Below are positions 3,738-52,403 of a stretch of DNA of 64,000 bases, piece after piece. The notes beneath the pieces were generated by a model that worked only from the letters and a program-made list of their open reading frames with translations, was not told where the DNA came from and did no database searches. Source of the stretch: Gammaproteobacteria bacterium. Lineage in GTDB: Bacteria > Pseudomonadota > Gammaproteobacteria > Eutrophobiales > Eutrophobiaceae. The stretch's first letter is position 1; every line of letters begins with the position of its first letter. The stretch spans positions 1,216,001 to 1,280,000 of the forward strand of contig OZ244905.1 in assembly GCA_965221695.1 (NCBI GenBank), given 5' to 3'. Position numbers and translations under genes: made by a program.

Positions 3738-3805
3738 GGAAACTCGGAACAAGTCCATCCTGGACTTGTCAGAGTACGGAACCTCTGACTTGATTCAGCC
3801 GTTCC
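3738..3805. mobile_element. Internally deleted (68 bp) copy of the IS5-like MITE family
   Basis: GGAAACTCGGAACAAGTCCATCCTGGACTTGTCAGAGTACG joined directly to GAACCTCTGACTTGATTCAGCCGTTCC; both ends match the 151-bp copies; flanks TAAA/TGAA. Confidence 0.75.
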
Positions 3806-10110: not shown

Positions 10111-10169
10111 TGGGAGGCGCTTGCACGGAAATGGAATTGGGCGCAGGTTGGTTTGTAAAAGTTACACAC

Positions 10170-19412: not shown

Positions 19413-19521
19413 GATTTGTTTCCTCCGTCATATCGGTAGACGGGTATATGTTACCCTGTCCGCCAACGGTTGAGAAATGTATTCGCCAGCAAGCGCCGAA
19501 AGTGTTGTATCATAGGCAGCT

Positions 19522-19741
19522 TTATCGAAACCCCAAATGCCGCGCCAGGGATGGCTGCTCTCTATAAAGTTATGCCGGATTAGCTCAGTTGGGCGAACCG
19601 GATTAAGCAAAAGACACTAAATGTGTCTTTTGCCCGGTGAGCGCCACAACACGGATGTTGGGGCCGGAGGTTATCGAAACCTCAAATGCCGCGCCAGGGA
19701 TGGCTGCTTTCTATAAGGTTATGCCGGATTAGCTCAGTTGG
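19522..19741 (+). repeat. 71-bp direct repeat (19522-19592 and 19671-19741) covering the tRNA leader and first 19 nt of tRNA-Thr
   Basis: 68 of 71 positions identical, 149-bp period; first copy stops after GCCGGATTAGCTCAGTTGG. Confidence 0.92.
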
Positions 19742-19795
19742 TAGAGCGCCCGCCTTGTAAGCGGATGGTCGGCGGTTCGAATCCGTCATCCGGCA
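19723..19795 (+). tRNA. tRNA-Thr(TGT), CCA not encoded
   Basis: Acceptor stem GCCGGAT/ATCCGGC+A, D arm GCTCAGTTGGTAGAGC, anticodon loop CTTGTAA, T arm GGCGGTTCGAATCCGTC. Confidence 0.93.
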
Positions 19796-19828
19796 GATTT
19801 TTCCTTATTGACCCTGCTTATATCGTCA

Positions 19829-19858
19829 GGAACCTCTGAGACTTAATCTGAGGTTCTC
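19829..19858. repeat. Isolated terminal hairpin of the IS5-like MITE
   Basis: GGAACCTCTGAGACTTAATCTGAGGTTCTC resembles GGAACCTCTGATTAAGTCAGAGGTTCC at 30998. Confidence 0.6.
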
Positions 19859-19957
19859 TCAGGTAGTATTTCAAAGAAATTTACCATCAACCAGCGCGGG
19901 CTAAATCTCCCGCTGCGTGTTTCCCGTAAACTTATTCCGGCAAAGGGTTTTAAATGA

Positions 19958-20019
19958 TATTGATAATATATTAACAATAAACTAGAATATTACCGCTATG
20001 ATTGATAATATTATATCAA
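19958..20019 (+). promoter_or_regulatory. Two palindromic operators, putative autoregulation of the hipBA-like pair
   Basis: TATTGATAATATATTAACAATA (19958-19979) and TTGATAATATTATATCAA (20002-20019). Confidence 0.55.
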
Positions 20020-20288
20020 ATTATAAGATGCCAAGTGAAATTCAGCGTTCCCTGTCTGAAGCGTTCAGGTCGGTGCGCAAATCCAGACGGCATGGCCGTA
20101 AGGAAACCAGCATCAGAACGGGTGTGCCGGAGGCAACCATTCGGCGCTTTGAGGATACCGGCGAGATATCCTTGAGGCAGTTGTTGATGTTGTGTGATGT
20201 CTACGGAAATGCCAGCGCTACCGATTCACTGTTTCCACTAGAACCACAAAGCATGGATGAGCTGATTGCAATGAGTAACAGGAAGTGA
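19998..20288 (+). CDS. XRE-family HTH antitoxin (HipB-like)
   Basis: R..RK...........TGV...TIRRFE.TGEISL; GTGA overlap with the HipA-like gene. Confidence 0.82.
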   Translation: MIDNIISNYKMPSEIQRSLSEAFRSVRKSRRHGRKETSIRTGVPEATIRRFEDTGEISLRQLLMLCDVYGNASATDSLFPLEPQSMDELIAMSNRK

Positions 20289-21544
20289 AACTGCTGAATG
20301 TCCTCTACCATGGTTCAGGAGGCGACAAGTCGACCAGAATGGGGCGTCTGGCCTGGTACGAGCAGCGCGCGTGGTTTGAGTTTTCCGCGGAATTCATACA
20401 ACAGAATACGAATCCATCCCCTTTCTCACTCGAGCTGACAACAACATTACAGAAAGCGCCACTGGAACCCTTTAATGGATTGCACGGACTGTTCAGCGAT
20501 TCCCTGCCGGATGGCTGGGGCCTGTATCTGATGGACAACGCGATTAAACAATCCGGACGAAACCCCGCCACGCTCAGCCCTCTTGACAGGTTGGCCTTTA
20601 TCGGCAAACGGGCAATGGGAGCGCTATCCTACGAGCCTGATGAGCCGGACTCCGTAGAACGACACACCGCGATGACACTGGATATCGGCGCCACCGGCAA
20701 CGAGGCAACCCGCTTGTACCAGGGGGAACTGTCAGAAGTACTGGACCGCCATGCAATCAATGGCACGCCCTCTGCCGGCGCCAGGCCGAAAATTCTTATT
20801 GGAATAAGCGGCGATACGGTCGTTGAGGGCGCCGGCGAACTGCCGCCTGACTATTCCCATTGGCTGGTTAAGTTTCCAACCGGCCACACCCCCGATAAAA
20901 AATCGGAAGGCGCGATAGAGTATATCTACTCGGTCATGGCCCGTCATGCCGGGATTACTATGGCGGAGACAAGGCTTGCGCCGGCGCAGGACGGCAATGC
21001 TTATTTTATGACGCGCCGGTTTGACAGAGCGCCAGGCAACCAGCGCCGCCATGTACAGAGCGTGGCCGGTATCCTGAATACGGATTTCATAGCGTCAAAC
21101 TTTGGATACAGAGAGCTCATCAAGCTGTGCGGGATGCTCTCCCATTCGTATTCCGAGAAGTTAGAGTTGTTCCGGCGCATGATCTTTAACATCGTCATCG
21201 GCAACCGGGATGACCACACCAAGAATTTTGCTTTCATGCTGTCGGACAAAAATGAATGGCGCAATACACCAGCCTATGACATTACCTGGAACCAGGGAAT
21301 GATGGGCGAACATGCCATGAGCGTTAACGGCAAGGGCAAAGACATTCGCGTTGATGATGTGATTAACATCGCCCGAAGCGCGTCCATCTCCAGGCAGGAT
21401 ATGAGCATTGTGACTGAAGCGGTTTTGGAAGCCGTATCGGACTGGAACAGCCTGGCGCTTCAGTACGATGTTCCAACTCAACAACGTCAGGACATACATC
21501 AGTATATTGCGCGCCAGCAGCGAGCGCTGTCAGACGGCACATAA
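20285..21544 (+). CDS. hipA: HipA-family Ser/Thr kinase toxin
   Basis: GLFSDSLPDGWG, R.MGALSYEP, GARPK, WLVKF, RRFDR, NRDDHTKNF, PAYD. Confidence 0.92.
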   Translation: MKLLNVLYHGSGGDKSTRMGRLAWYEQRAWFEFSAEFIQQNTNPSPFSLELTTTLQKAPLEPFNGLHGLFSDSLPDGWGLYLMDNAIKQSGRNPATLSPLDRLAFIGKRAMGALSYEPDEPDSVERHTAMTLDIGATGNEATRLYQGELSEVLDRHAINGTPSAGARPKILIGISGDTVVEGAGELPPDYSHWLVKFPTGHTPDKKSEGAIEYIYSVMARHAGITMAETRLAPAQDGNAYFMTRRFDRAPGNQRRHVQSVAGILNTDFIASNFGYRELIKLCGMLSHSYSEKLELFRRMIFNIVIGNRDDHTKNFAFMLSDKNEWRNTPAYDITWNQGMMGEHAMSVNGKGKDIRVDDVINIARSASISRQDMSIVTEAVLEAVSDWNSLALQYDVPTQQRQDIHQYIARQQRALSDGT

Positions 21545-21674
21545 GCGCTGGATGCCCTCAACTACCTCCAGTCAGCATACAACCACTGCCAGTGACCAGG
21601 AACGGACCCTGAGACGTGAACGAGACCGGGAAACGGACATTACCCGACGACTGAAACTGACGGCGCGATACGGC

Positions 21675-23792
21675 TTAATCCAGCATCTGCAACATTTCAT
21701 CGTAACGTTTGAGGGCCTTGTCTGCATGCTGTCTTAATGCGGGCAACTGCGCGTTCCAGAGTGGTTGCATCAGGTCTGCCGTTTCCCATCGCTCCAGGTC
21801 GTCATGGGCTTGTGGCGCGGTAGCCAGCAGGGCTTCTATCCTGGCCCTGTACTTTTCCACCAATGCCGGCACGGCTGGCGCGTTCCAGAATTCTTCCACA
21901 CCATCCACATACACGTAAACGGGCGCGCTGTGAGCCAAGGCGCCGTTTTTCCCGTAGGCGCGCACGGCAACCCAGCAACTTTTTTCCGCCTTCAGGTTGT
22001 GTTTCAGCGTCAGACTTTCCGCGCCCTCTTCCGATGCCTCGGCCGCCACTACTTGCCCATGGATGACCAGTTCGACCCGGTCCAGGCTGTCCAGGTCGGG
22101 ATTGAGCCGCGCCTCGGCTGTTATATTCAGCGTCTCGCCGCCGGCCGCCGCCACGGTATCGCCCAGCGTCCCGCCGGCAACATCAAGGCTGAGCATAGGT
22201 CCATTGGTGACAAAAGTCCGTCCCTGCCTTAATCCTTCGAACCAGGCCTGGGGTGAAAACGGGCCGCCGATGCGGACGTAGGAACGTTCGGTTCCGGGCA
22301 GGTTGATATAGGGAAAATCGGATCCAGCAACCGGCGCAAGCCGGAAACCCAGGTTCCAGAAATCGTACAGGAATTCCGTTCCCAACAGGCTGAACTGCAA
22401 TACCTCGATGAAGTCCACCAGCTCCATGGGCACATCCAGCGCCAATCCCCAGGAGACATGAAACGCATCAATCATCGCATGGGCATAGCCGAAGAGCCCG
22501 CCGTCCGCCTGCGCCGCCCTTGCCGTAGCATGATAAAGGTAGAAATCAACCGGGTCGTGATAGCGGCTGATGTTCAGGCTGATGGTATGGCCGCGCTGGC
22601 CGGTGCGCGGCGCCTCCTGGCCTGACACCAGCGCATGGTTGTCCTGCAAATAATGCCCGTCTTCGCCGAACGCATACTGGGGGAAGTAATATCGGGCAAG
22701 ATTGGCCATTTGCAACAGGTTGCTGACGTGAATATCCTCGGCGCTGAGCAGGGCAAGTATCTCGGGGTTGTCGGCCCGGGCGCGTTCGATATGGATATGT
22801 GCATCGCCGGAGAACCAGCCCTGTTCCGGCATATTGATCCAGCGTTGCAGCGACACCTCCACGCGGGTATGCCCGTGGGCAGCGATCTCCACTTCCTGTG
22901 TATGGATATGATATTCAGGCCCCCTGCCGACCACAAGCTGGTAGCGGCCTGCCGGCAATTGCGCTTCATAGTCGCCGTTCACGTAGAACGCGTGCCCTTT
23001 GCCGGCGGGCCAGAACTCGAAACCTTGTCGTACCGGAACCTGCCTGACGCGATCGGTAAAGCGCGGCACGACCAGGGCCTGTTCACCGGGTGCAGGCATG
23101 CGCCCGTGCGCATCGTACAGTCCTACACGGGCAGGGATGGCGCCGCCGCCTGCGCCATCTCGAATCTGCAAACTCAATGTGCCCACAGGAGTTGAGTCGG
23201 GCGCTTGCCGGCCCTCCCGTGTGATCTTCATGCCACACAGCACAATTTCATGGTCCGCTTGCGCATCATATTCGAGCAGTGCGCCCAGCGCGGCGACACC
23301 GAGGTCGGTATGACCGTGGCGCCGGTTCGCAAGCCCCGCCCGTTCCAGTTCGACGCGTACCCATTGCCAGCGTTGAGCGCGGTCCCGCTCCAGCTTTACC
23401 GTCTTGGCTTGCGGCGAGTCTGACGCATGATCATAGGAAATGATAAGGCCGTCCGTCTCGCTGGCGTCGAACAGCAGGTCCACGGTCACGGTCTCGTCAA
23501 TATTGAACGCAAAATCGTCTTCCACATCAAAAATGAAATTCGGCCCGACCAGACAGCGCTTGCCCGCCACCTCCTCTACCCGGCCGGGAGCCCTCCAGGT
23601 CAGGATCAAGGCGCCGGCATGGAAGTCTTCCCCGAGGGAATATACCCGCTTTATGTTATCCGCCCGCCAGTCCAGTTCCTCCATCGCCAGAGGGTGACGC
23701 TCGTGAGCGCCGGCGAACGGGGACGTTATAAGTGCGAACAGCAATAGCGGCAGGCAAAGGGTGAACAGTTTGAGTGGTGTGCTGATTAGCAT
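21675..23792 (-). CDS. Exported CehA/McbA-like (PHP-fold) metallohydrolase
   Basis: Signal peptide after MLISTP; RGPEY, GWFSGDAHIH, GQE...GH, YAH, GSD, GRTFVTNGP, AHSAPVYV. Confidence 0.78.
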   Translation of the reverse strand: MLISTPLKLFTLCLPLLLFALITSPFAGAHERHPLAMEELDWRADNIKRVYSLGEDFHAGALILTWRAPGRVEEVAGKRCLVGPNFIFDVEDDFAFNIDETVTVDLLFDASETDGLIISYDHASDSPQAKTVKLERDRAQRWQWVRVELERAGLANRRHGHTDLGVAALGALLEYDAQADHEIVLCGMKITREGRQAPDSTPVGTLSLQIRDGAGGGAIPARVGLYDAHGRMPAPGEQALVVPRFTDRVRQVPVRQGFEFWPAGKGHAFYVNGDYEAQLPAGRYQLVVGRGPEYHIHTQEVEIAAHGHTRVEVSLQRWINMPEQGWFSGDAHIHIERARADNPEILALLSAEDIHVSNLLQMANLARYYFPQYAFGEDGHYLQDNHALVSGQEAPRTGQRGHTISLNISRYHDPVDFYLYHATARAAQADGGLFGYAHAMIDAFHVSWGLALDVPMELVDFIEVLQFSLLGTEFLYDFWNLGFRLAPVAGSDFPYINLPGTERSYVRIGGPFSPQAWFEGLRQGRTFVTNGPMLSLDVAGGTLGDTVAAAGGETLNITAEARLNPDLDSLDRVELVIHGQVVAAEASEEGAESLTLKHNLKAEKSCWVAVRAYGKNGALAHSAPVYVYVDGVEEFWNAPAVPALVEKYRARIEALLATAPQAHDDLERWETADLMQPLWNAQLPALRQHADKALKRYDEMLQMLD

Positions 23793-23977
23793 GACGGAAA
23801 GTTTCCTGGCGCTCTTACAATGCAGTTTAATCACAATTCCGGATTGTGTAAATTCAGCAAGAAGACAGATGCCTGTGTAGGCATAATATGGCGGGGTCAC
23901 TATCAACAATTTACCGTCAGGTCACGCGGGATAACACCCTCCACGTCGTGCTTCCTGCAAAATGATAATTTCCCCTC

Positions 23978-24017
23978 TTGACACTTCTGCCAGATCTTGT
24001 ACATAATTGTTGTACAA
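23978..24017 (+). promoter_or_regulatory. Sigma70 promoter overlapped by two TGTACA operator palindromes
   Basis: TTGACA (23978-83)-N18-CATAAT (24002-07); TGTACA at 23998 and 24011. Confidence 0.7.
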
Positions 24018-24038
24018 TATTAGCCACGGAGTGATTTT

Positions 24039-24269
24039 ATGATACAGGTCAACATCAGTGAGTTCAGAACCAATTTATTGAAATACCTGAAAAATGTACA
24101 ACGCGGGGGACAAATCAGTATTACCTCGAAAGGAACCGCACTGGCTACTGTTATTCCGCCGGTCAGCCAACGCGACACCGCCAGAACCGAACTCTCAAAG
24201 CTGGCGAAAACCGCAGTGATACATGACGTGGTATCACCGGTGGAGACCGATTGGGATGTCATGAAATGA
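24039..24269 (+). CDS. Phd/YefM-family antitoxin
   Basis: VNISEFRTNL..YL..V..G..I.IT..G..LA.V.P pattern; ATGA overlap with the toxin. Confidence 0.88.
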   Translation: MIQVNISEFRTNLLKYLKNVQRGGQISITSKGTALATVIPPVSQRDTARTELSKLAKTAVIHDVVSPVETDWDVMK

Positions 24270-24655
24270 TATTGTTGGATACCTGCGCGATAGTCTGGGA
24301 CGCCCTGGAACCCGACAAGCTGACAACTGCGGCCAAGCGGGCAATCGAGCGCTCTAGAAACGAACTAATGATCTGCGATATCTCCTTCTGGGAGATTTCC
24401 ATGCTTATCAGGAAGAAACGCCTGGTCGTCGATGCCACTATCTCCGAATTCATCCAGCTGGCGCTTCAGGCCCGTGACTTGCAGGTATTGCAGATAACGC
24501 CTGAAATAGCTGAACTGTCTGTTAATTTCGGCGCAGATATCAATAAAGACTCCGTTGACCGACTTATTGCAGCCACTTCAATAATACTGAATGCCCCTAT
24601 TGTCACGGCTGACCGGAACCTGAGGGCCGCGACTGTTATTGAGACTATTTGGTAA
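24266..24655 (+). CDS. vapC: PIN-domain VapC toxin
   Basis: LLDT, SFWEI, D..DRLIAAT, VTAD acidic tetrad. Confidence 0.9.
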   Translation: MILLDTCAIVWDALEPDKLTTAAKRAIERSRNELMICDISFWEISMLIRKKRLVVDATISEFIQLALQARDLQVLQITPEIAELSVNFGADINKDSVDRLIAATSIILNAPIVTADRNLRAATVIETIW

Positions 24656-24754
24656 TGGCAAAGACGCTGAACCCGGATACAACCACGGTCGACGACCGGG
24701 AACCGGACTTGAGACATGTTGTTTACATGTAATATTCGTGAGATAATCACGATA

Positions 24755-25987
24755 ATGACAGATAAAAAAAGAAACCTTTATCCCAAATGTCTTAAATTAT
24801 TGGAGTGGTTCCCAGCAGTAGCTATCCTGGGCGCAAGGCAGACAGGGAAAACCACACTTGCCAAGGCGCTTGGAAAAGACTGGACTTATGTAGACCTTGA
24901 ACGTCCTGAGGACCTGGATCGTCTGAGCTATGATCCGTCATTTTTTTTCACCAGGCACCCAGCCTCCCTGATCCTCGACGAGGCTCAGGAATATCCCGAA
25001 ATCTTTAAGGTACTGCGTGGTGTGATTGATGCCGACAGGAAGAAAAACGGGCGGTTTATTCTGACAGGTTCCAGCAGTCTCACCTTGTTTTCAGAGATAT
25101 CGGAAACACTTGCCGGCCGTGTGGCAATCGTTGAACTGGGCACGTTCAAGAGTAATGAGTACTACAGTCTGCCATTGAGTCCGTTTTATTCACTTTTTGA
25201 ATCCAGGTTGAGCAAGGCGCTCCCCGTTGCCGGCGCGCCACCACTCAGCAGAGTTCAAATTCAACGATTCTGGTTTTATGGCGGCTACCCGGAACCGGCG
25301 CTTGCCAACAATCCACAACGCCATGCGGTCTGGATGGACAATTACAGGGACACCTACATCAACCGGGATGTTGCAAAGCTGTTTCCGAAACTCAATCGAC
25401 AGAGATACCGGCGATTTCTTACTATGTTGTGCAAGTTATCCGGTACGCTTATTAATAAAAGCCATGTAGGAAGAGCGGTTGAAGCGAGCGAATCGAGTAT
25501 CCGCGATTATCTTGATATCGCTCATGGCACGTATATCTGGCGGAAACTAAGTTCCTTTGAGGGATCTGTCGCAAAGTCCATCACAAAAATGCCCAAAGGG
25601 TACATACGGGATTCGGGCTTGTTGCATTACCTGCTTGGGATACACAGTACGGATGAATTGATGTCAGACCCGGTCGTCGGCGCTTCTTTCGAGGCTTATG
25701 TGTGTGATGAATTGATTAAGGGCCTTGAAGCGACCATGGTAACCAACTGGTCTGTACACTATTATCGAACCCGTGGCGGCGCAGAAATAGATTTGATCGT
25801 TCAAGGCCCCTTTGGCATTTTACCCGTTGAAATCAAATACGGCAGTTCAGTCAAACGAAGCAGCCTGAAATCCCTGACAAATTTTGTTAAGGACAACGGG
25901 TTGCCAATGGGCCTGCTGGTTAACCAGGGTGAAAAAGTTGAATTTGTTACACCAGAAATCGTTCAAGTGCCGGTGGGATGGTTATAG
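24755..25987 (+). CDS. AAA+ ATPase with DUF4143 and C-terminal PD-(D/E)xK-like motif
   Basis: GARQTGKT, ILDEAQ, FILTGS, ETLAGR, GGYPE, K.PK.Y..DSG, YYRT..GAEIDL...PVEIK. Confidence 0.88.
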   Translation: MTDKKRNLYPKCLKLLEWFPAVAILGARQTGKTTLAKALGKDWTYVDLERPEDLDRLSYDPSFFFTRHPASLILDEAQEYPEIFKVLRGVIDADRKKNGRFILTGSSSLTLFSEISETLAGRVAIVELGTFKSNEYYSLPLSPFYSLFESRLSKALPVAGAPPLSRVQIQRFWFYGGYPEPALANNPQRHAVWMDNYRDTYINRDVAKLFPKLNRQRYRRFLTMLCKLSGTLINKSHVGRAVEASESSIRDYLDIAHGTYIWRKLSSFEGSVAKSITKMPKGYIRDSGLLHYLLGIHSTDELMSDPVVGASFEAYVCDELIKGLEATMVTNWSVHYYRTRGGAEIDLIVQGPFGILPVEIKYGSSVKRSSLKSLTNFVKDNGLPMGLLVNQGEKVEFVTPEIVQVPVGWL

Positions 25988-26071
25988 TGATATGAACAGG
26001 AAAACCAATCACGTCGGGCGCGAAGAGAAGCGGGCAGTACGCGATTTACAACGATTACGCGAGTTTCTTCC

Positions 26072-27673
26072 TCACCCCACAACCAGCGCAAGTATCCAGA
26101 CCAGGAGCAGTCCGGCCAGTACATGCGGGCTGCCGAGGTAGAAGCGGCGTTTCAGTTTCCCTTTGTTGGCGGCCTTCAATTCCTCGCCCAGGGTCCCATA
26201 CCTGCTTGGAAAAAATGTTCCGAGATACTCCTTCAGAAAGTTACTGGTGCGCCTGGTCGGCAGGCCCATATCGCGCATCAGTTCGTCTACGTAGTGGGCG
26301 ATATACGGTCCGGTGAAGACGCCGTCTTCCATTTCCGGCACTCTTTCTTTAGCCCAGTTCTCCAGTCGTTCAATCTCCCAGTCCATCTCTTCGGGTGACG
26401 GCAGGCTCATGTTTCCGGTGAACAACTGCGTTGCCCAGTGCGCGCCGACTTCCGAAGACAGCGGGCAGGTGAGGGTCGGGAAAAATCCGATAAACGCCAG
26501 CCTTTGTTGGCCGGGGGGCAGTATCCGCCGATGCAGATGAAAGCGGCCGTTCCTGATAATCTGCGACCTCAGCTCATCGCTCAGGAACGACATGTCGCGC
26601 TTCCATCCCGTACCCATGATGACCAGGTCCGCTTCTATCTGTGTACCGTCATCGAGTTCGACGCCCAGGTCATAAAACCCCTTGACGTTGGCCCGTATCG
26701 CGCTGATGCTGCCGGCATTGAGCAGGTCAAAAAAGTCGTCCACCTGGCCCACGCTTTCAAAGCCGACCGGCAACTTGTGTTCCGGGGTCATATGTTTGGG
26801 CATGCCCAGGACGCGAGGCGTCACGGCGCTCATGAAACTCCACCACAGCCACACCAGCGGTTTACCGGGACCATGCAGCAGCTTTTCATCCCAGGCGCGG
26901 GTCGGGTAATTGACGAACATCTCGATAAAGCGTGAGATGAAGCGCAGGTCGCTGCGGGCGCCGCCGGGCAGGTAGCGCGGCACCATCCAGTGCGGTTTGC
27001 GGAACACCAGGGTCGCGGTTTTTCCTTCTCTGGCTGCCCAGGCGGCACAGTCCAGCGCAGATTTGCCACCGCCGACAACGACCACGCGCCGCACATCTGC
27101 GACCGCGGGATGGGTCCATTCGCTGGAATGGCGCACCAGGCCCTTAAAATTCTCACGACCGGGTAGTTCCGGCATCATAGGTGTGGAAAACGCGCCTGAG
27201 CAGACGATGACATACGCAAACTCATGGTTCTCCTCCTTGCTCTCCTCGCCGGTTTCATCTGCCGTCGAGCGCGTCAGCAGCTTAAATCCCTGCTTGGCGT
27301 CGGTATTGATCTCTGACAGGCGGACCACTTCGGCGCTGAAACTGATATGCGGATAAAGCCCGAAATGGTCCGCATAGGATTCCAGGTGCGCGCGCACTTC
27401 TTCAGCCACCGGGTAACCGCTGGTGGATGCCGGATACGGAAAATCGCTGAGACTATAGGTTTCCTTTGCAGTATTCGCCCGCAAGCCGGGATAGGCACGC
27501 GATAAGGCCCAGACCCCACCCAGACCGGGTTCCTTTTCAAACACCCGGACATCGAACCCATTCTCGAGAAAGATCTTGGCCGTCACCAGTCCGGCAATGC
27601 CGGCGCCGATGATGCCGACCTGTTGTGCGGGTATCTCGGAATTTGTGGCGCCTGTGTTTGTCGCTTCGTTCAT
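26072..27673 (-). CDS. Flavin-containing monooxygenase (class B) with C-terminal membrane anchor
   Basis: IIGAGIAG, GGVW...YP, FxGxxxHSxxW fingerprint (FKGLVRHSSEW), VVGGGKSA, MGTGW; terminal hydrophobic helix. Confidence 0.88.
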   Translation of the reverse strand: MNEATNTGATNSEIPAQQVGIIGAGIAGLVTAKIFLENGFDVRVFEKEPGLGGVWALSRAYPGLRANTAKETYSLSDFPYPASTSGYPVAEEVRAHLESYADHFGLYPHISFSAEVVRLSEINTDAKQGFKLLTRSTADETGEESKEENHEFAYVIVCSGAFSTPMMPELPGRENFKGLVRHSSEWTHPAVADVRRVVVVGGGKSALDCAAWAAREGKTATLVFRKPHWMVPRYLPGGARSDLRFISRFIEMFVNYPTRAWDEKLLHGPGKPLVWLWWSFMSAVTPRVLGMPKHMTPEHKLPVGFESVGQVDDFFDLLNAGSISAIRANVKGFYDLGVELDDGTQIEADLVIMGTGWKRDMSFLSDELRSQIIRNGRFHLHRRILPPGQQRLAFIGFFPTLTCPLSSEVGAHWATQLFTGNMSLPSPEEMDWEIERLENWAKERVPEMEDGVFTGPYIAHYVDELMRDMGLPTRRTSNFLKEYLGTFFPSRYGTLGEELKAANKGKLKRRFYLGSPHVLAGLLLVWILALVVG

Positions 27674-27836
27674 ATAACTGTCTCCCTTATTGTGTCGCCC
27701 AGAGGGTGACCCTTTGTTCCACTGGATTCTCGTTTTCACGGGAATGGTATGAGACGCAGGCTAGTTAGTAAGGCTTACACAGCATATCCCACCAGGCTGC
27801 GTATTGGTATAGTATGCTATACGATAATTCGCTCGT

Positions 27837-30443
27837 TTGAGGTATCCCGCGTTGAAAGAAGTAAAAACGCTCATGCTGTACGCCTGTTTGTTTGCTTTAC
27901 TTGCTGCCTGTGGTGGCGGTGGAGGAAGCGGCGGTAACAGCAACGTTATGCCGGATCCGACGCCACCGCCTTCGCCGCCGCCCGCGCCGAGTGAAGATGA
28001 ATTAAGAGAAGAATACGCCGCCCATTTCGAGTTTCAGAACCAGCCTGCCCTGGAGCGGATCAACGCGCATTATGCTTATGCGCGCGGCGCTACCGGCGCC
28101 GGGGTCACTGTCGGTATCGTGGACTCCGGCATCGACGGCAATCATCCGGAGTTCAGCGGCAAACTGTCACCGGAATCCTGGAACATCTCAGGGTATGACC
28201 CGGATTATAACCTGTGCACGGGGCGTAATGCCGATGGCGCCTGCGGGTTTGATGCAGGCCCGCCGTCCCATGGCTCGCTGGTTGGCGGAGTCCTGGCCGC
28301 GAACCGCACTGCCGGCGCCGATACACCCGGGGTGGATGTGCCGTCCATACATGGCGTTGCCTTTGACGCAAGGCTGTTATCAGTGGGGCTCCCGCTGAGT
28401 GACCCGCCCGATGTCTATTCTCCTATTGACCTCCAGGACAGCGCCAGTACAACAGGCATTGATCAGCTATTCGCTGATATAACAAGCAGGTTGAATCCCA
28501 GCGTCACGGTCATCAATTTGAGCATTGGCCTGCAGGGAAATATCGAAGCCTATAATGAGGCCGAAATCCGCGCCGCGTTCCCGCTTTTGCTGGAATCCAT
28601 TGCCCAGGCAGAGAGGCCGGCGGCAGAACGCGCGATCTACGTGTGGTCTGCCGGCAACGCCCAGAGCGAGCTGCGTGCCGACGGCAGTTTTGAACAGGCT
28701 ACATCGGTAGAGATCATGGCCGGGCTTCCGGCGCTGGTTCCGGCGTTGCAAGGTCACTCTCTCGCGGTGGTATCGCTGAAAGAGAATGGCGAGATCAGCG
28801 ATTTTTCCAACCGTTGCGGCATTGCCCAGGATTTTTGCCTGGCCGCGCCGGGTGAAAATCTGATCGGGCCGGTTTCCAATATTTTCTGTCCGGCCGGACA
28901 GGGAGACTGTTATGCTCAGGCCAGCGGCACATCCTTGGCCGCACCGTTGGTCAGTGGCGGCGTTGCTTTGCTGGCCCAGCATTATCGCAACCAGTTGGGC
29001 AATGACGAAATCACCAGTCGCTTGCTGGAGACGGCCAACAAAGAAGGGATTTATGCCGATGCGGACATCTATGGTCAAGGCCTGATGGACCTCGACCGCG
29101 CCACCCGCCCGCTGGGTCAGACACGTTTGCTGACCGGGCAGTCAATGTCGGGCGCGGCCGCGCCCGAGAGCCTCAGCGCAGTGAGCCTGGGGCCGGTTTT
29201 TGGCGATGCATTACACCGCGGGCTGGCCGGGCTGGAAATTGCAGCGTTTGATGAGTTGGACGCGCCGTTCTTTCGCCCACTTGCAGATTATGCGCAAATG
29301 TCCACAGTTACCGGCACCCGGCTGGAAAACAGGTTAGGCTCGCTGGGCTATGACCCAAGGGGTAGGGTATGGATGCACAACGGCCTGGAACTCAGGGCGC
29401 AAACTGCGTATGGTTCTGTGCGAGCGCGTTTTGACCCAACCTACCTGTTGCGCAGAGATGGTATGGTATTTGACCCGTGGATTGACCATTCTACCGGTCT
29501 CCACGGGCCTGCGTACAAACCGGTTGAACGGGGAACAAGCGGTCTTGATGCCGGCGCGTTTTCGCTGTTGCGCCGGCAAGCAAACAAGCAACTCTTCCTG
29601 GGGTTCAGACACCATCCCGGTTGGAACCTGGGTCTGCATGCCTCCGCCGCTTTCTCCGGTTCGGCGGCACACCTGGTCGGCGCGTTTACCGATGATGCGG
29701 CCTTCAGCAACCCTTTTCTGTCATTGGCCCGCGACGGTGTAACGGCCGGCTTTTCGACAAAGCTGCCCAGGGGCGCGCTCAGCATTGCGGCATTTCATGG
29801 GGCTGCGCAATATGGCCAACAGCGTGTTGCCGATCGCCACAAGACCAGTGGCGCGCTGGCTGAATACCGCTTCACTGACAGCCGCTTGGCCGGCGTCGCG
29901 CTACAAGCCGGTTGGCTGACAGAGCCGGCCCGCCTCGCGGGCAGCCGCGCGAGTGGCGCCTTTGGTGAGTTGAGCGCGGCCACCGGTTTTATCGGGGTCT
30001 CCGCGCATCGCCGGCTCAGCCGGCATTGGTTGGCGCTGGTGACTGCCCATACCGGCATCAGTCGCGCAAACATGGAGGCGCCGAGTTTGTTGCATGATAT
30101 GTCGGCTTTATGGACCAGCGCGTTTGAATTGGGATTGGTGGGCGAAAATATTGCTTCCGGGCAAGACCGGTTGGCGTTGAAACTGTCTCAACCGTTACGG
30201 GTGGAGTCCGGCCATGTCGGCCTGCGCTGGGCTACCGGGCGCACCCGGGAGCGGCTGGTACAGGTTGTAACAACCGTGCTGGGACTTGAACCCTCTGGTC
30301 GCCAGCTCGATTTGGAACTTGCCTACAGCCGACCCTGGCAAGGTGGTTTTGCGCATATTGCCACACTGGTTACACATAACGCCGGACATACTCACGGGGA
30401 GGAGGATTTGGCGTTACTGATGCGTTATCAGCGCAATTTCTGA
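27837..30443 (+). CDS. S8 subtilisin-like serine protease, lipoprotein with C-terminal beta-barrel (autotransporter-like)
   Basis: LAAC lipobox then Gly/Pro linker; VDSG, HG, SAGN, SGTSLAAP catalytic motifs; YGQGLMDL; ends YQRNF. Confidence 0.87.
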   Translation: MRYPALKEVKTLMLYACLFALLAACGGGGGSGGNSNVMPDPTPPPSPPPAPSEDELREEYAAHFEFQNQPALERINAHYAYARGATGAGVTVGIVDSGIDGNHPEFSGKLSPESWNISGYDPDYNLCTGRNADGACGFDAGPPSHGSLVGGVLAANRTAGADTPGVDVPSIHGVAFDARLLSVGLPLSDPPDVYSPIDLQDSASTTGIDQLFADITSRLNPSVTVINLSIGLQGNIEAYNEAEIRAAFPLLLESIAQAERPAAERAIYVWSAGNAQSELRADGSFEQATSVEIMAGLPALVPALQGHSLAVVSLKENGEISDFSNRCGIAQDFCLAAPGENLIGPVSNIFCPAGQGDCYAQASGTSLAAPLVSGGVALLAQHYRNQLGNDEITSRLLETANKEGIYADADIYGQGLMDLDRATRPLGQTRLLTGQSMSGAAAPESLSAVSLGPVFGDALHRGLAGLEIAAFDELDAPFFRPLADYAQMSTVTGTRLENRLGSLGYDPRGRVWMHNGLELRAQTAYGSVRARFDPTYLLRRDGMVFDPWIDHSTGLHGPAYKPVERGTSGLDAGAFSLLRRQANKQLFLGFRHHPGWNLGLHASAAFSGSAAHLVGAFTDDAAFSNPFLSLARDGVTAGFSTKLPRGALSIAAFHGAAQYGQQRVADRHKTSGALAEYRFTDSRLAGVALQAGWLTEPARLAGSRASGAFGELSAATGFIGVSAHRRLSRHWLALVTAHTGISRANMEAPSLLHDMSALWTSAFELGLVGENIASGQDRLALKLSQPLRVESGHVGLRWATGRTRERLVQVVTTVLGLEPSGRQLDLELAYSRPWQGGFAHIATLVTHNAGHTHGEEDLALLMRYQRNF

Positions 30444-30595
30444 TTTGCCCGACGCAACCCGTCAATGATGTTCTCAACCTGCTTTATCCAGGACTGCCCA
30501 AGCCGGCATCCCAAACCGGGACCCTTGAATTTCGTATGGAAAACCGCTATATTTGTATCTGCTATTCAAGCTGTTGAATAGTACCCGTTGTTCAT

Positions 30596-30953
30596 GGGGG
30601 CGTACCTGGTTTCGACGAGGGCGCTGAAGCCCAAGGGGCATGCCGAGGTGCAGATCACCTCGTAAATCCATCTGCAAACTTCAATAGTTGACGAAAAGTA
30701 CAACTACGCTCTGGCTGCTTAAAGCCGGCCAGCCTCTGACTGAAATGTGCTTGTGCTTTCTACTCAGGGGTCACAAACACAAGCTCGCGATAAAGCCTGT
30801 CCCGGGTGGATTCGCTAAAGCTTAAGGGACTCGTTGCCTGCGTTCCCCTGCCGTTTCGGGTAACAGGCGATTAAATCTAATGAGACGGCTAAGCATGTAG
30901 AACCGAAGGTCGATGGCTCGCGGACGCCGGTTCGACTCCGGCCGCCTCCACCA
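30596..30953 (+). ncRNA. ssrA: tmRNA
   Basis: 5' GGGGGCG pairs with 3' CGCCTCC-ACCA with G3.U; GGTTTCGAC, T arm GCCGGTTCGACTCCGGC; tag frame 30690-30722 DEKYNYALAA*. Confidence 0.97.
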
Positions 30954-30997
30954 ATATTACCTACAGGGATGTAGCTGTCACTCGCCTCCATATCTAG

Positions 30998-31148
30998 GGA
31001 ACCTCTGATTAAGTCAGAGGTTCCTACGATACAAGGATGTATCGTCAATATCAATGACTGTAAGGCATTGATATTGTGAGGAAAACAAAAATCGCATTTT
31101 TGTTTTCCGTACTCTGACAAGTCCAGGATGGACTTGTTCAGAGTTTCC
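30998..31148 (+). mobile_element. 151-bp IS5-like MITE, full copy 1
   Basis: 18-bp imperfect terminal inverted repeats GGAACCTCTGATTAAGTC / GGAAACTCTGAACAAGTC; CTAG duplicated on both flanks. Confidence 0.9.
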
Positions 31149-31223
31149 CTAGTATATATTCCACGGGCAATGTCGCCACAAACCTGACTACGCACAACCA
31201 TCGGATTGATCCCCTGGTCGAAA

Positions 31224-32738
31224 TCATCGCACCAAGCTGCTGAGAAACTCCGCGAATGGCACGATATTCCCTTTTACACTCGCTTCTTCCAATGCCTGCA
31301 TGTAGTCATTGCGGCGTTCGACCGGGATGACCATCCATGGGTAGCCGCCGGAAGCCAGCATGGCATTCATTAAAAAGCGGCCCATCCTTCCATTGCCGTC
31401 AATGTACGGGTGGATGTAGACAAACATAAAATGTCCAAGGATTACGCGTACTGCCGGTTCGGTTTCTTCACGCAACAGATCGAAAAATACCGGCATGCAG
31501 TCCCGCACAGCCTCCCGACTCATCGGCACATGCATCGAACGCCGGATATGGACCTGGCCGTTACGGTAACCGGCAAGGTCGGCAGGTTTTAACAGTCCCG
31601 CCGCGACGCTGGGTTCAAATAACTGCATGTGCCACTCACCGTGATCATCGTCAGCGACGGTGCCAGGGTTTTCGTCTTTCAAGATCCTCTCTACGCTTTT
31701 CCTCACCGCTTGAAAAGCCTGCCAGTAGCCACGTGCAGCTAAAGCATTACGCTGATCGCGGTCCCCTTCATTGTTATCCGGATTCCACGTACCGCTGCGT
31801 ACACGCTCGATCAGTTCAGGTGTGACACGATACCCTTCAATCGAAAGGGAATGATAGGCATCCGTGACATATATCTCATCAACCTCTGTTAAATAGGTTT
31901 TTGTGTCAGATGACAAGCCCTTTGCTTTCGGAAATTTACCAACAATATCCTTGCGCATCTGTTGCCATATCAGCCGTAAACGGTTAACGTAAGGTGAGCG
32001 TTCACGCGGGCATGGCTCGAAGCCGGTTTTCGTTTCAAACGGATCTTCTTCGTAAACCTTGTAGTCGGCTGCACGCATCGTCTTGACAATCCGATCAGCA
32101 ATCCTGTCCTTGCCAATATTGCGGAACGCACCAGCAAGACGGCCCGCAACTTTAGTGTGGCCGCCTTCCAGTAGAATTGCGAGCAGGTCCGATGCATCCT
32201 GGACCATATAGAGGACCACACGCGCATCGGTCGGGTTCTGTTTGAATATGCCGGGGCCAGTTTCGACTAGCACAGAGGGAACCGAGAAAAGACGGAGACC
32301 CCTTTTTTCTGTACTCTGCGCGGGATCCGGTAAGGCGGCGCGCAATTCAAATAACGAGGTGTCATAAGGCAGCGATAGTGGTTTATTACCACCCTTGAGC
32401 GCTCGGACCAAAAGCTGTTGAGGAACTGTCCAGTTCCCGGCGTGCAGTGATAGTGACTGTTCCGGTGATAATGCCCATTGATTTCCGAAACGCTGTTCCA
32501 GGTATGACGCACAAAAATCCCAAAAGGATGTATACCAGACCGTACTCTCTCCCGCTGCCTGATCCGGCCTCGCGGCGATGTACCAGCCTTTCATTACTTC
32601 CTGGAGGAAACTGTTTTTGACGAGTCGCTCGCGGTGGGTTCGCGTTAAATCGCGGGACCGAATAGCAACAACACCTCGCTCCTGTATTTTGTGCAGGACA
32701 TTAAGCGATTCAGCGAGTTTTTCTGAGGGGGTTGCCAT
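31224..32738 (-). CDS. Fic-domain protein
   Basis: HPYIDGNGRMGR catalytic motif; upstream SLSIEG inhibitory-type motif. Confidence 0.92.
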   Translation of the reverse strand: MATPSEKLAESLNVLHKIQERGVVAIRSRDLTRTHRERLVKNSFLQEVMKGWYIAARPDQAAGESTVWYTSFWDFCASYLEQRFGNQWALSPEQSLSLHAGNWTVPQQLLVRALKGGNKPLSLPYDTSLFELRAALPDPAQSTEKRGLRLFSVPSVLVETGPGIFKQNPTDARVVLYMVQDASDLLAILLEGGHTKVAGRLAGAFRNIGKDRIADRIVKTMRAADYKVYEEDPFETKTGFEPCPRERSPYVNRLRLIWQQMRKDIVGKFPKAKGLSSDTKTYLTEVDEIYVTDAYHSLSIEGYRVTPELIERVRSGTWNPDNNEGDRDQRNALAARGYWQAFQAVRKSVERILKDENPGTVADDDHGEWHMQLFEPSVAAGLLKPADLAGYRNGQVHIRRSMHVPMSREAVRDCMPVFFDLLREETEPAVRVILGHFMFVYIHPYIDGNGRMGRFLMNAMLASGGYPWMVIPVERRNDYMQALEEASVKGNIVPFAEFLSSLVR

Positions 32739-32828
32739 GTCTTACTTTTTTAGGTTATTATGCTCTACATATATTAGGTTATCATGTTTTAAATGATTTA
32801 GGGCTTCGTGTCTGTCAAAATTCAGTGG

Positions 32829-32851
32829 ACCTCTGAGATTAAGTCAGAGGT
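32829..32851. repeat. Isolated terminal hairpin of the IS5-like MITE
   Basis: ACCTCTGAGATTAAGTCAGAGGT. Confidence 0.6.
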
Positions 32852-32856
32852 GCAAC

Positions 32857-33339
32857 TTAGATGTACATCATGATGCTGTCCAGCGGTGTGTCTGCGTTGA
32901 GCAGGTCGACCCGCTTGGACTTTATTTTCAGTCCGTCTCCTGTGCGTACCAGGCGCCAGGTGACGGTACCGGCGAATGTGTCCTGTTTGCGGTGGTGGAT
33001 GACGGCGATGATGCCGGCCTTGACGATGATGTCACCCGCCGGTCCCGACGACAGGTCGATTTCCGGTTCTGACAGGATACGCATTGAGCGTACTTCAAGC
33101 TGCATGGACGGCGATAACGGGTTGTGCAGGTTGTGCCGGCGCATCGCCATCAGGGCGCGGTTGTCGTAGATAAGGGAGTCGTGCTGTTCCGGATCGGTCT
33201 GCCCCCGTTCCAGGGGCATCCAGTAATAGCCGTCTTCCGTAAACAGCGAGATCCAGGTGTCGAGATCCGCGTCATTTAGGCAGCGGGTCTCAACGCGGAT
33301 CAGGTCTTTGATTTCTTGCTGTAATTTGCCAACTGCCAT
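32857..33339 (-). CDS. Aromatic ring-hydroxylating oxygenase, beta subunit
   Basis: E...L.......W..LFTEDG.YWMP, SLIYD, G.V..RL......LKI..KRVDLLN. Confidence 0.88.
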   Translation of the reverse strand: MAVGKLQQEIKDLIRVETRCLNDADLDTWISLFTEDGYYWMPLERGQTDPEQHDSLIYDNRALMAMRRHNLHNPLSPSMQLEVRSMRILSEPEIDLSSGPAGDIIVKAGIIAVIHHRKQDTFAGTVTWRLVRTGDGLKIKSKRVDLLNADTPLDSIMMYI

Positions 33340-33340
33340 A

Positions 33341-34654
33341 TCAGGTCATGTAGTCAAGCCAGGCGGCATACTGGTTGCGCAGCGCCAGGTCGCTGGTGCC
33401 CGTGGCCCTGAGCCGTTCCCCGTCGCGGATTTCCCTGCCGAAATGGCGCTGCATGTCTACCCATTCTATCGCGCCGGCCTCGGCGCTCTCCTGGATCCGG
33501 ATATAACAGTCCAGGTCGTCCGGACCGACCATTGATGCCGGGGAGTTGATCAGGCGGGAATAGCGCAGGGTGCGTTCCAACATGTTCGGCGGTGCGCCTT
33601 TCAGCCTGAAAGTCCAGGATTCGATGACGGTCTCGTTGACCGAGACCGGTATGACCACACGCACGGACTGTATGTTGTCGCGTACCGTACAAGATGGGTA
33701 GATCAGACCGTTGTGGCGGTTGAACGACAGTATCTCCTTGACGCGCTCACTGCCGTAGGCCCGTTCCATTGCTTCCAGGTAATCGGGATAGACCTGGTAG
33801 TGGCTGAAAATACTGGTCGTGCCGCCCATGTAACCGTGCCCGCGCGGCAGTCCGACAAAACCCATATCGTCAAAAAAGTCATAGGAACCGCCGAACGGGG
33901 CTATCACTTCCGCTTCCGGCAGCGGGGCATCGTCTGGCGGAAGCTGTTCCTTGTATTGCCTTACTGCGTCAGTAGTGCCGGCATGGGCCACCATGGGATG
34001 CATCGCATCGTGCAGGTTCTCGATGAAGAACTTCCAGTTAACCGGATGGCGAAACCGGTGACAGGTTTTTCCCGTTACTTCCACTTCGCCTGCCGGCGCG
34101 CGGTCGACCATGTTATCAATCGTGTCGCGCATATCGCCGAGGAAATCCGGCAGGTCAGAGCCTGTTGCGGACAGTGACGCAAACACAAACCCGCGATATT
34201 GTCCGCACCGGGGAACCCGGGGCATGCCGAATTCTGCCGCGTTGCGGTCGAAACCCACATCCCTATAGCCGGCGGGACTTGGCTGTGAACGCAATGTGCC
34301 GTCGGTACGGTAGGTCCAGCCGTGATAGGGGCATTTGAATAGTTTGCCCACGTGGCCGGCGCGTGCCTGGCAGACCTGGGCGCCCCGGTGCCCGCAACGG
34401 TTCACCAGTACATTAATATCTTTGCCATTCATGTCCCTGACCATGATGACGGGGGTCAGGCCAATGGTCGTGGTGATATAATCACCGGCGGACCTAACCT
34501 GGCTTTCATGGCCGACATAGATCCAGGCTCGTCCCCAGATACGCGCTATTTCCAGTCTGAAAATCTCTTCCTTGACGTAAACGTCACGGTGTACGCGGGC
34601 CGGATCGACGAGTGACTTCAGAACGTCTGGACTGTCGTAGGAATCAGGTTGCAT
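33341..34654 (-). CDS. Rieske ring-hydroxylating oxygenase, alpha subunit
   Basis: W.YVGHESQ, NRCGHRG...CPYHGW Rieske motif, NWK...ENLHDAMH....H and DD mononuclear iron ligands. Confidence 0.92.
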   Translation of the reverse strand: MQPDSYDSPDVLKSLVDPARVHRDVYVKEEIFRLEIARIWGRAWIYVGHESQVRSAGDYITTTIGLTPVIMVRDMNGKDINVLVNRCGHRGAQVCQARAGHVGKLFKCPYHGWTYRTDGTLRSQPSPAGYRDVGFDRNAAEFGMPRVPRCGQYRGFVFASLSATGSDLPDFLGDMRDTIDNMVDRAPAGEVEVTGKTCHRFRHPVNWKFFIENLHDAMHPMVAHAGTTDAVRQYKEQLPPDDAPLPEAEVIAPFGGSYDFFDDMGFVGLPRGHGYMGGTTSIFSHYQVYPDYLEAMERAYGSERVKEILSFNRHNGLIYPSCTVRDNIQSVRVVIPVSVNETVIESWTFRLKGAPPNMLERTLRYSRLINSPASMVGPDDLDCYIRIQESAEAGAIEWVDMQRHFGREIRDGERLRATGTSDLALRNQYAAWLDYMT

Positions 34655-34687
34655 GCCTGACAGGTTACCAGAATTAGCGGGACGCCC

Positions 34688-34717
34688 AAAACAAAAAGCC
34701 GGACGATGTCCGGCTTT
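34688..34717 (-). terminator. Rho-independent terminator of the alpha operon
   Basis: Minus strand AAAGCCGGAC-ATC-GTCCGGCTTTTTGTTTT. Confidence 0.8.
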
Positions 34718-34752
34718 GAATTGATACAGCTTTTGTTATTATTATTATTTGA

Positions 34753-34903
34753 GGAAGCTCTGAACAAGTCTATCCTGGACTTGTCAGAGCACGCAAAACA
34801 AAAATGCGATTTTTGTTGTGCTCTCAAATTCAATGACTTATCGTCATCGAATTTGGCAATACATCCCTGTATCGCAGGAAACTCTGATTTAATCAGAGTT
34901 TCC
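34753..34903 (-). mobile_element. 151-bp IS5-like MITE, full copy 2
   Basis: Same length and layout as 30998-31148 in reverse orientation; TTGA duplicated on both flanks; lies between the rplQ stop and its terminator. Confidence 0.9.
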
Positions 34904-34907
34904 TTGA

Positions 34908-35306
34908 TCAACTTTCCGTGTCGTTGTTATTTTCTTCCGAGGTCGGTATGGGCCGGTCAACCAGCTCCACAATGGCCATCGGCGCTTTGTCGCCGACTCT
35001 GTAACCACATTTCAGTATGCGCAGGTAACCGCCCGGCCTGCTTTTGTAACGCGGCCCCAGTTCGTTAAACAGTTTTGTCACTGTGGGCCTGTCGCGCAGG
35101 CGCGAGAATGCGAGCCTGCGTCTGGCTACGGAATCGGTTTTTGCGAGCGTAATTAATGGTTCGGCCACCCGGCGCAGTTCCTTCGCTTTGGCCAGGGTGG
35201 TCTTGATCACTTCGTGGCGCACCAACGATGCGGCCATGTTGCGAAACATGGCTTTGCGGTGACTGCTGTTCCGGTTCAGTTTCCGACCACTTTCTCTATG
35301 ACGCAT
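34908..35306 (-). CDS. rplQ: 50S ribosomal protein L17
   Basis: [20 protein letters not shown]. Confidence 0.98.
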
Positions 35307-52266: not shown

Positions 52267-52362
52267 GCGTACGCATCGTTTGTGCTTTAACGTTTCCACT
52301 GGGGGCGCGGACGTCTCGCCCGAGCCCCCAGGGAAACAAGTGACCGATGTCTGGCGCTTCTA

Positions 52363-52403
52363 CGCGCTCTCACCAGTCCTGGATGGACTTGTTCGAAGAT
52401 TCC
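52363..52403. mobile_element. Degenerate end of the IS5-like MITE abutting the rpoC stop codon
   Basis: Minus strand TTAA|GGAATCTTCGAACAAGTCCATCCAGGACTGGTGAGAGCGCG aligns to GGAAGCTCTGAACAAGTCTATCCTGGACTTGTCAGAGCACG. Confidence 0.65.

Follow-up and report, generated by a model that had tools for sequence, protein, structure and literature searches.

We analyzed a 64,000-nucleotide (nt) stretch of DNA, hereafter the window (G000:C1:1216001-1280000), from the 3.54-Mb, single-contig genome G000 (55% G+C) of a gammaproteobacterium of the family Eutrophobiaceae, whose closest relatives by RpoA (93-80% identity) are all uncultured 'Gammaproteobacteria bacterium' metagenome-assembled genomes. An initial annotation had described nine hairpins with GGA loops in this window, most of them beside the genes for tRNA-Thr, transfer-messenger RNA (tmRNA) and ribosomal protein L17 (rplQ), and had proposed that they form a distributed sponge for the RNA-binding regulator CsrA. 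The long hairpins belong to a new family of miniature inverted-repeat transposable elements (MITEs) with a striking CsrA-like module; a sponge system is not demonstrated. The most probable interpretation, in our assessment, is that the long GGA hairpins are modules B and E of an ordinary MITE rather than a purpose-built CsrA sponge, and that the copies next to tmRNA and rplQ are recent accidents.

According to this interpretation, a transposase supplied in trans would move the non-autonomous MITE into AT-rich sites within spacers, frequently immediately at stop codons, and copies would enter, or survive, more readily when the GGA strand is not the mRNA strand (about threefold rarer on co-directional transcripts). 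Titration of CsrA by the minority of copies in sense orientation would be a by-product at most.

A MITE family with CsrA-consensus hairpins

The element is ~151 nt long, lacks coding sequence and consists of five consecutive hairpins, A to E; RNA folds of both full-length window copies gave five hairpins (z = -8.5 and -9.9). Loop B reads AGGA or GGGA, and loop E reads GGA. The ends are 11-nt terminal inverted repeats, GGAACCTCTGA and TCAGAGKTTCC, and the terminal-repeat motif occurs 333 and 323 times on the two strands of G000. Among 79 scorable copies, the 4-bp target duplication (consensus YTAR) reads the same to the left and to the right of the element in 60, the types including TTAA (30), CTAA (7) and TTAG (6). 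The rplQ copy is 85% identical to the tmRNA copy and is flanked by the duplication TCAA (minus-strand reading) at 34904-34907 and 34749-34752. Modular derivatives consist of A alone or of A and E, and forms with extra modules are found in the related genomes G003 and G014. Being short (<300 bp), non-coding and present in many copies, with inverted repeats, target duplications and both filled and empty sites, the element is a bacterial MITE.

Searches with blastn and with an nhmmer profile built from full copies yielded 220 matches in G000 (112 on the plus and 108 on the minus strand), 91 of them full length, with identities of 98-100% for many. The family was found in 23 of the 41 related genomes searched, including 18 of the 22 sister genomes of the genus and, outside the genus, single genomes of four other genera. 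The insertion site next to tmRNA is empty in the related genome G008, in which tmRNA is 100% identical and the flanks align across the site; the tmRNA copy has an identical twin elsewhere in G000. L002-L006, the five closest rpoA loci, lack the rplQ insertion and retain the terminator of rplQ. Both insertions, being absent in the nearest relatives, are thus recent and lineage-specific, and the position of the MITE beside abundant RNAs is accordingly best seen as a landing accident. A further, independent copy lies after rplQ in a relative with 78% RpoA identity (L016 4541-4663), in sense orientation and beyond the terminator.

All nine hairpins of the initial annotation were recovered by a hairpin scan and direct reading (Table 1), and its positions for tRNA-Thr, tmRNA, rplQ, rpoA and the rplQ terminator were likewise borne out. 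The scan also found 52 GGA-loop hairpins with stems of at least 4 bp on the plus strand of the window and 68 on the minus strand (16 and 25, respectively, with stems of at least 5 bp). Because such hairpins are common as background, those with 4-5 bp stems carry little weight. The 8-15 bp hairpins are far beyond chance, only by being repeat copies. Five of the nine derive from the one MITE, 3 from a second repeat of ~115 nt combined with a local duplication, and 1, the hairpin starting at 30961, from non-repeat sequence. The attribution to at least two unrelated repeat types therefore stands for the MITE and the ~115-nt repeat but does not extend to the 30961 hairpin, which is present in G008, partial in G019 and missing from G003, G004 and G014.

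The loop of hairpin E reads CAGGAUG, a CsrB/Rsm-type site known from sponge RNAs. Hairpin B of both full-length window copies, in turn, is an exact match, with the GGA looped, to the high-affinity CsrA consensus RUACARGGAUGU, obtained by systematic evolution of ligands by exponential enrichment (SELEX) and placing the GGA in a hairpin loop, as quoted in PMC4347634. The two exact matches reported earlier, one at 31029-31040 and the other its rplQ counterpart, were thus confirmed. The exact consensus occurs 103 times in G000, compared to 1.3 expected from composition; 100 of these occurrences are in MITE matches and the other 3 in MITE-like sequence.

The csrA gene on which the sponge proposal depended is present once in G000 (PF02599 at 90 bits). 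Its 91-aa product begins MLILTRRIGESLMIGDDV, and we take its N-terminal RNA-binding half to resemble E. coli CsrA closely. Because hairpin B matches the high-affinity ligand and CsrA is conserved, the resident CsrA would very probably bind RNA transcribed from this strand, if the GGA side is the one in the RNA. The csrA locus (lysC-csrA-tRNA-Ser) has itself a partial MITE (modules C-E) just after tRNA-Ser, in antisense orientation (L001 1071-1159, corresponding to G000:C1 about 1,649,604-1,649,692).

Searches for the canonical sponge RNAs CsrB, RsmY and RsmZ (RF00018, RF00195 and RF00166) detected no match in G000, a result that concerns detection and does not equal absence. The MITE has no above-threshold Rfam match (RsmV scored 12 bits against a cut-off of 100), and no site with one or fewer mismatches to a GacA-type box was found in G000 spacers. 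There are 20 spacer windows of 140 nt with at least 9 GGA in G000. Two sponge-like windows, at genome positions 755,250 and 1,395,220, were set aside as they are really inverted arrays of a ~26-nt repeat. The unit of this repeat, ACATGGATG-N-ACAGGAT-NN-ACAGGAT, is found at ~20 loci, and the inverted arrays lie ~100 nt apart in spacers (genome 755,250-755,480 and 1,395,220-1,395,520); they resemble an array of protein-binding sites or the termini of another mobile element and not a sponge RNA.

No promoter-like or terminator-like site was found on the sense strand of the tmRNA copy. A single 9/12 match to an outward promoter on its antisense strand was dropped, since by reading it is not kept in the rplQ subfamily. 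Among sequencing runs compared to positions 30400-31400, the three RNA (metatranscriptome) runs contain tmRNA of relatives (90-99% likeness), and no contig, all of them being strandless, spans tmRNA into the MITE. One RNA run contains low-depth MITE-like contigs, also strandless and not assignable to a locus.

Orientation relative to transcription

To relate the copies to local transcription, genes were called in G000 by a codon log-odds model combined with the length of the open reading frames (ORFs). The resulting 2764 genes cover 88% of the genome; tRNA and tmRNA genes were added to them. The 91 full copies were located in convergent (17), divergent (28) and co-directional (40) spacers, with the remaining 6 inside called genes. 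Of the full copies in co-directional spacers, 11 had the GGA strand on the transcript and 29 on the opposite strand. With split and E-only elements added, the count in co-directional spacers of G000 was 19 sense versus 49 antisense (p = 0.0004), and the same count under stricter gene calls was 12 versus 34 and 8 versus 28.

The relatives were represented by the best-scoring 30 loci each of G003, G014 and G019 and a few single loci; split hits were merged, only hits with hairpin B or E were retained, and convergent, divergent, intragenic and edge contexts were dropped. These best-scoring loci gave 9 sense versus 32 antisense copies (p = 0.0004), distributed as 2:15 in G003, 4:9 in G014, 3:7 in G019 and 0:1 in G018. 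In total, co-directional copies over G000 and the best-scoring loci of the relatives amount to 28 sense versus 81 antisense. Thus, the strand bias toward flanking transcription that the initial annotation had put forward for checking runs the opposite way.

Full copies showed no preference relative to the direction of replication (46 versus 45) or within divergent spacers (13 versus 15), and the 130 non-MITE GGA-loop hairpins located in spacers showed none either, with 37 sense versus 30 antisense in co-directional spacers. Within 150 nt of the 3' end of a gene, 47 copies were in sense and 74 in antisense orientation. Genes with a sense or an antisense 3' copy did not differ in codon adaptation (p = 0.71), a weak test given that the index, for which the ribosomal-protein operon served as reference, is 0.71 for ribosomal genes and 0.70 for the rest.

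In the window, 3 of the 4 MITE pieces are in sense orientation, the reverse of the genome-wide pattern. The exception is the degenerate piece after rpoC, for which the opposite orientation noted initially was confirmed. The further statement that all the hairpins lie on the transcribed strand of abundant RNAs holds insofar as they are on the gene strand, and its transcription part was not confirmed.

The youngest copies, with the nearest sibling within 3 differences, were already biased (4 sense versus 15 antisense, compared to 7 versus 14 among older copies), and the bias was thus present at or soon after insertion rather than produced by slow purging. Sense copies were further from the family consensus than antisense copies (median of 18 versus 4 differences; p = 0.009). 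Termination was considered as a cause of the bias and found no support, as 4 of the 91 full copies are terminator-like in sense and 12 in antisense orientation. The share of copies in short residual spacers was alike for both orientations (6 of 19 sense and 15 of 49 antisense). The flanks are mildly asymmetric in the frame of the element, with A at the mirrored positions -5 to -7 in 46-70% of cases on the right and 23-48% on the left, which leaves room for a target-driven preference that may set the orientation. Alternatively, an immediate cost of Shine-Dalgarno-like or CsrA-binding GGA hairpins on polycistronic messages may cause the bias.

Constraint on the hairpins and alternative explanations

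Across 127 distinct full copies, many stem pairs change their Watson-Crick type, for example from A-U to G-C or from G-C to C-G. In an alignment of 18 sequences from five genera, 93.7% of the cells pair, compared to 86.0% in column shuffles (0 of 500 as high), 16 pairs show double changes, and sliding the partner column lowered pairing to 34-48%. Covariation is seen in helices B, C and D; the sequences of A and E, both built on the terminal repeats, hardly vary. In 29 copies from the four other genera, the lower stem of hairpin B is wholly replaced by compensatory pairs. As judged from these alignments, the hairpin architecture is kept in the element lineage by compensatory changes, and because the stems covary, we infer that propagation or tolerance of the MITE depends on the hairpins.

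Several results weigh against the interpretation of the long hairpins as parts of an ordinary MITE. In the same 29 copies, GGA is intact in loop B of 27 and in loop E of 27, as against 17 for loop A, 4 for loop D and none for loop C, and hairpin B keeps ACA in 25 and UGU in 22; across genera, no internal positions of the element are better conserved than the GGA loops. They appear better conserved than a neutral passenger would predict, which favors a real constraint on the GGA tops. Both GGA loops, B and E, are also on one strand, and mismatch states shared by at least 3 copies favor G·U on the GGA strand (totals of 132 versus 77). Other repeat families of G000 likewise carry CA-NGGA-UG hairpins. 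In addition, the orientation result rests on our own, crude gene calls and on the top 30 loci per relative, and neither a cognate transposase nor a full-length insertion sequence (IS) with matching ends was found in G000. The G·U excess was considered as a sign of RNA-strand selection on dispersed copies and rejected, given that it sits in the states of at least 3 copies; since the states present in no more than 2 copies comprise 51 G·U and 50 A·C, with no strand preference, the excess was not used as evidence for selection.

The transposase search covered several kinds of candidates. The multi-copy IS3-like and IS21-like elements of G000 were excluded as partners because their ends differ (self-megablast), and the 10 repeat-flanked ORFs tested were all metabolic genes (Pfam). 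Repeat-flanked segments of 0.7-3 kb and two 363-aa ORFs in G000 provided no transposase partner. The IS5 group produces 4-bp YTAR duplications, a feature shared by the MITE. Among the IS5-related Pfam families, the search covered PF01609 (the IS4/IS5-type DDE_Tnp_1), which had 0 matches in G000 and matches in 9 of 14 control genomes. The MITE had no match in a plasmid collection.

Three alternative explanations were weighed. The first holds that the CsrA likeness is irrelevant: the GGATG hairpin tops would serve transposition or another DNA-level process, and the orientation bias would come from an asymmetric target preference. In its favor are the near-invariance of hairpins A and E, built as they are on the terminal repeats, the asymmetric flanks and the bias already present among young copies; in addition, several unrelated repeats of G000 have loops of a similar kind, and in some of these, GGA and TCC loops share one strand. 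However, the two GGA loops are direct and not inverted, unlike paired transposase sites, and hairpin B is internal, with a stem free to covary. This explanation is possible, although we do not consider it probable.

In the second alternative, the MITE carries working CsrA sites from place to place. Its GGA loops would be selected in the element lineage because binding of CsrA to co-transcribed copies matters, for example through protection or silencing of neighboring messages; each insertion could then bring a neighbor under the control of CsrA, and the bias would reflect the cost of this inside operons. Several features are consistent with it: hairpin B conserves ACA-NGGA-UGU and hairpin E conserves GGA across genera while the stems covary, the variable position of loop B is A or G in 117 of the 127 full copies, as the R of the consensus permits, both loops occupy one strand, and the bias is confined to spacers through which transcription runs. 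However, young copies are biased at least as strongly as older ones, pointing to insertion preference, the rare mismatches are strand-symmetric, and hairpin E is conserved whole, stem included, as expected of a subterminal transposase site. The csrA gene was found in 38 of the 41 genomes and, among the MITE-bearing ones, is lacking only in one that is 83% complete; because csrA is nearly universal among the relatives, this co-occurrence is uninformative. Overall, we regard a carrier of working CsrA sites as unlikely. It is similarly doubtful that each sense insertion would equip a host message with a high-affinity CsrA site, with ~100 perfect sites in each genome, that the threefold deficit of this orientation in operon spacers would be the footprint of what CsrA does there, and that the surviving sense copies would act as a diffuse, unregulated CsrA sink.

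The third alternative, a distributed sponge riding on translation-machinery transcripts and titrating CsrA in proportion to expression, is very improbable, because a device of this kind should show an excess of sense copies and be kept at abundant loci, and the opposite was seen. The presence of csrA, the exact SELEX consensus of hairpin B and the CAGGAUG loop of hairpin E agree with this proposal, as do the local majority of sense pieces and a sponge role that, as far as our searches reach, is vacant. What speaks against it is the reversed orientation genome-wide and near gene 3' ends, where codon adaptation (by the weak test above) made no difference, together with the absence of the tmRNA and rplQ insertions from the nearest relatives and stems of dispersed copies that show no strand-specific constraint. 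Moreover, rpoC, the other large translation-machinery gene with a copy, has it antisense. The trailer of tmRNA and the leader of tRNA are removed during maturation, and the abundance of the mature RNAs thus does not carry over to the hairpins. Of the initial proposal that repeats donate Csr-binding modules, it holds that mobile repeats carry the hairpins, that csrA is present and that hairpin B equals the published consensus; their placement on abundant transcripts to titrate CsrA does not, given the reverse orientation bias and the lineage-specific insertions.

Features of the window, known systems and implications

Table 1. Positions of genes, hairpins and repeats in the window (position 1 is the first letter of the window)
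Feature	Position	Strand	Basis or context
Short A+E MITE derivative, hairpins B-D missing	3738..3805	-	~50 nt upstream of the ATG of gene 2238-3686; GGA strand is the gene strand
Ninth hairpin	about 3749-3770	-	~50-65 nt upstream of the ATG at 3686 (gene 2238-3686)
tRNA-Thr leader duplication	19513..19745	+	~75-nt block 19520-19595 is a direct duplicate of 19670-19745
GCCA-GGGA-TGGC hairpins, 4-bp stems only	19544-19555 and 19693-19704	+	hairpin scan and direct reading
CAACA-CGGA-TGTTG hairpin	19647-19660	+	hairpin scan and direct reading
tRNA-Thr (TGT)	19722..19796	+	position as in the initial annotation
Solo hairpin-A-like palindrome GGAACCTCTGA...TCTGAGGTTC	19829..19858	+	directly after tRNA-Thr; no GGA loop
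tmRNA gene	30596..30953	+	position as in the initial annotation
CTACA-GGGA-TGTAG hairpin in tmRNA 3' trailer	30961..30974	+	non-repeat sequence
Full-length MITE copy (tmRNA copy)	30998..31148	+	44 nt past the tmRNA 3' end; CTAG duplication at 30994-30997 and 31149-31152
Modules of the tmRNA copy	A 30998-31024, B 31026-31045, C 31046-31076, D about 31080-31108, E 31112-31143	+	fold
ACGATACA-AGGA-TGTATCGT (MITE hairpin B, tmRNA copy)	31026-31045	+	hairpin scan and direct reading
Hairpin E stem-loop (tmRNA copy)	31112-31143	+	hairpin scan and direct reading
rplQ intrinsic terminator	34695..34717	-	kept in relatives without the MITE
Full-length MITE copy, older subfamily (rplQ copy)	34753..34903	-	between the rplQ stop and the conserved terminator
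Hairpin E (rplQ copy)	34758-34789	-	hairpin scan and direct reading
GCGATACA-GGGA-TGTATTGC (MITE hairpin B, rplQ copy)	34856-34875	-	hairpin scan and direct reading
rplQ (ribosomal protein L17)	34908..35306	-	stop codon 34908-34910
Degenerate hairpin-E piece	52358..52408	+	abuts the rpoC stop codon, antisense to rpoC

The three hairpins of the tRNA-Thr leader have a separate origin. The duplicated leader block (Table 1) includes the first ~22 nt of tRNA-Thr, its duplicates lying ~150 nt apart, and two of the three hairpins are thus one sequence seen twice. A ~115-nt unit (about 19592-19706), which overlaps and is flanked by the duplicates, holds the CAACA-CGGA-TGTTG hairpin and a GCCA-GGGA-TGGC hairpin. 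It is single-copy in G000; four further copies in G003 (~80% identity) and at least one in G019 identify it as a second small repeat unrelated to the MITE. The leader arrangement is whole in G008, and G004, G014 and G019 share only the tRNA.

Directly downstream of tRNA-Thr (window 19998-21544), a small ORF is followed by a HipA-family kinase gene (HipA_C, Couple_hipA), an arrangement resembling that of a toxin-antitoxin islet located at a tRNA gene. At the tmRNA gene, a Fic-domain gene (31224-32738, minus strand) faces the 3' end, and the sequence downstream of tmRNA is wholly different between sister genomes. In G004, the terminal ~90 nt of tmRNA recur 1.9 kb downstream (G004:C1:799858-799949), the usual sign of an ssrA-integrated island.

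Further hairpin-rich repeats were observed in G000. One is a modular repeat of ~170-470 nt with variable modules (genome 39,230-39,700; 2,919,400-2,919,700; 3,195,330-3,195,620 and others), which includes GTTGCRCACA-GGGA-TGTGTGCAAT and same-strand hairpins with TCC loops. Another is a G+C-rich palindromic repeat, CACTCCCGC-GGAA-GCGGGAGT, with GCGGGAATGGGATGGGA nearby, located in spacers and sometimes in tandem (window 9988-10179 and 18401-18540; genome 775,106, 1,605,936 and 1,656,573). In addition, a very large, internally repeated coding block at genome positions 1,041,000-1,107,000 has tandem units of ~279 nt and ~1.2 kb that are 90-99% identical, which suggests giant genes for repetitive surface proteins.

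Full-text literature searches returned no description of this MITE or of MITE-borne CsrA sites. Correia/NEMIS of Neisseria, RUP, RPE and ERIC are bacterial MITEs (PMC2229807). Correia/NEMIS and similar MITEs resemble the present element in several respects: they are ~100-160 nt long and contain no ORF, they end in inverted repeats and duplicate TA-containing target sites, and hundreds of copies lie between genes. Their RNAs form stable stem-loops, and relatives differ in whether a site is filled or empty. Co-transcription with neighbors would be a further likeness. In contrast to Correia/NEMIS as described there, the present element has five hairpin modules instead of one end-to-end stem, a 4-bp YTAR instead of a TA duplication, modular derivatives, no known cognate IS and two CsrA-consensus loops.

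ERIC/IRU of Yersinia, another intergenic MITE co-transcribed with flanking genes, affects mRNA stability in an orientation-dependent manner (De Gregorio et al. 2005, as cited in PMC2229807), so that orientation decides the outcome for the message. For the present MITE, orientation dependence is deduced from a 1:3 count bias and not from measured decay, and the sequences are unrelated. REP/BIME palindromes, mobilized by RAYT transposases (PMC3733652), are also high-copy and extragenic and often lie near gene 3' ends. Unlike them, the present MITE has terminal inverted repeats, GGAAC ends instead of a GTAG/CGTC tag, greater length and multiple hairpins, and it makes target duplications (60 of 79), on account of which we do not assign it to REP/BIME.

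The sponge RNAs CsrB/CsrC and RsmX/Y/Z resemble the MITE in their looped GGA motifs and in the site types CAGGAUG and ACARGGAUGU, the latter as quoted in PMC4347634. However, the MITE does not form a discrete gene, neither a promoter nor a GacA-type box was found for it, and it carries only two looped GGA per unit. Furthermore, it is mobile, is found in both orientations and mostly antisense to local transcription, and has no Rfam match above threshold.

If the interpretation as an ordinary MITE holds, its ~200 copies, together with the other hairpin-rich repeats, can be expected to cause spurious 'regulatory RNA motif' calls across this uncultured gammaproteobacterial genus, and masking of these repeats is thus necessary. 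Independently of this, the orientation result, a dsDNA-type MITE lying 3:1 against transcription in four genomes, the youngest copies included and with no replication bias, calls for a mechanism. If the MITE did, after all, carry working CsrA sites, it would represent a transposon that, in bacteria, distributes the binding sites of a global RNA-binding regulator through the transcriptome, and it would offer a testable route by which genes may join or leave the Csr regulon.

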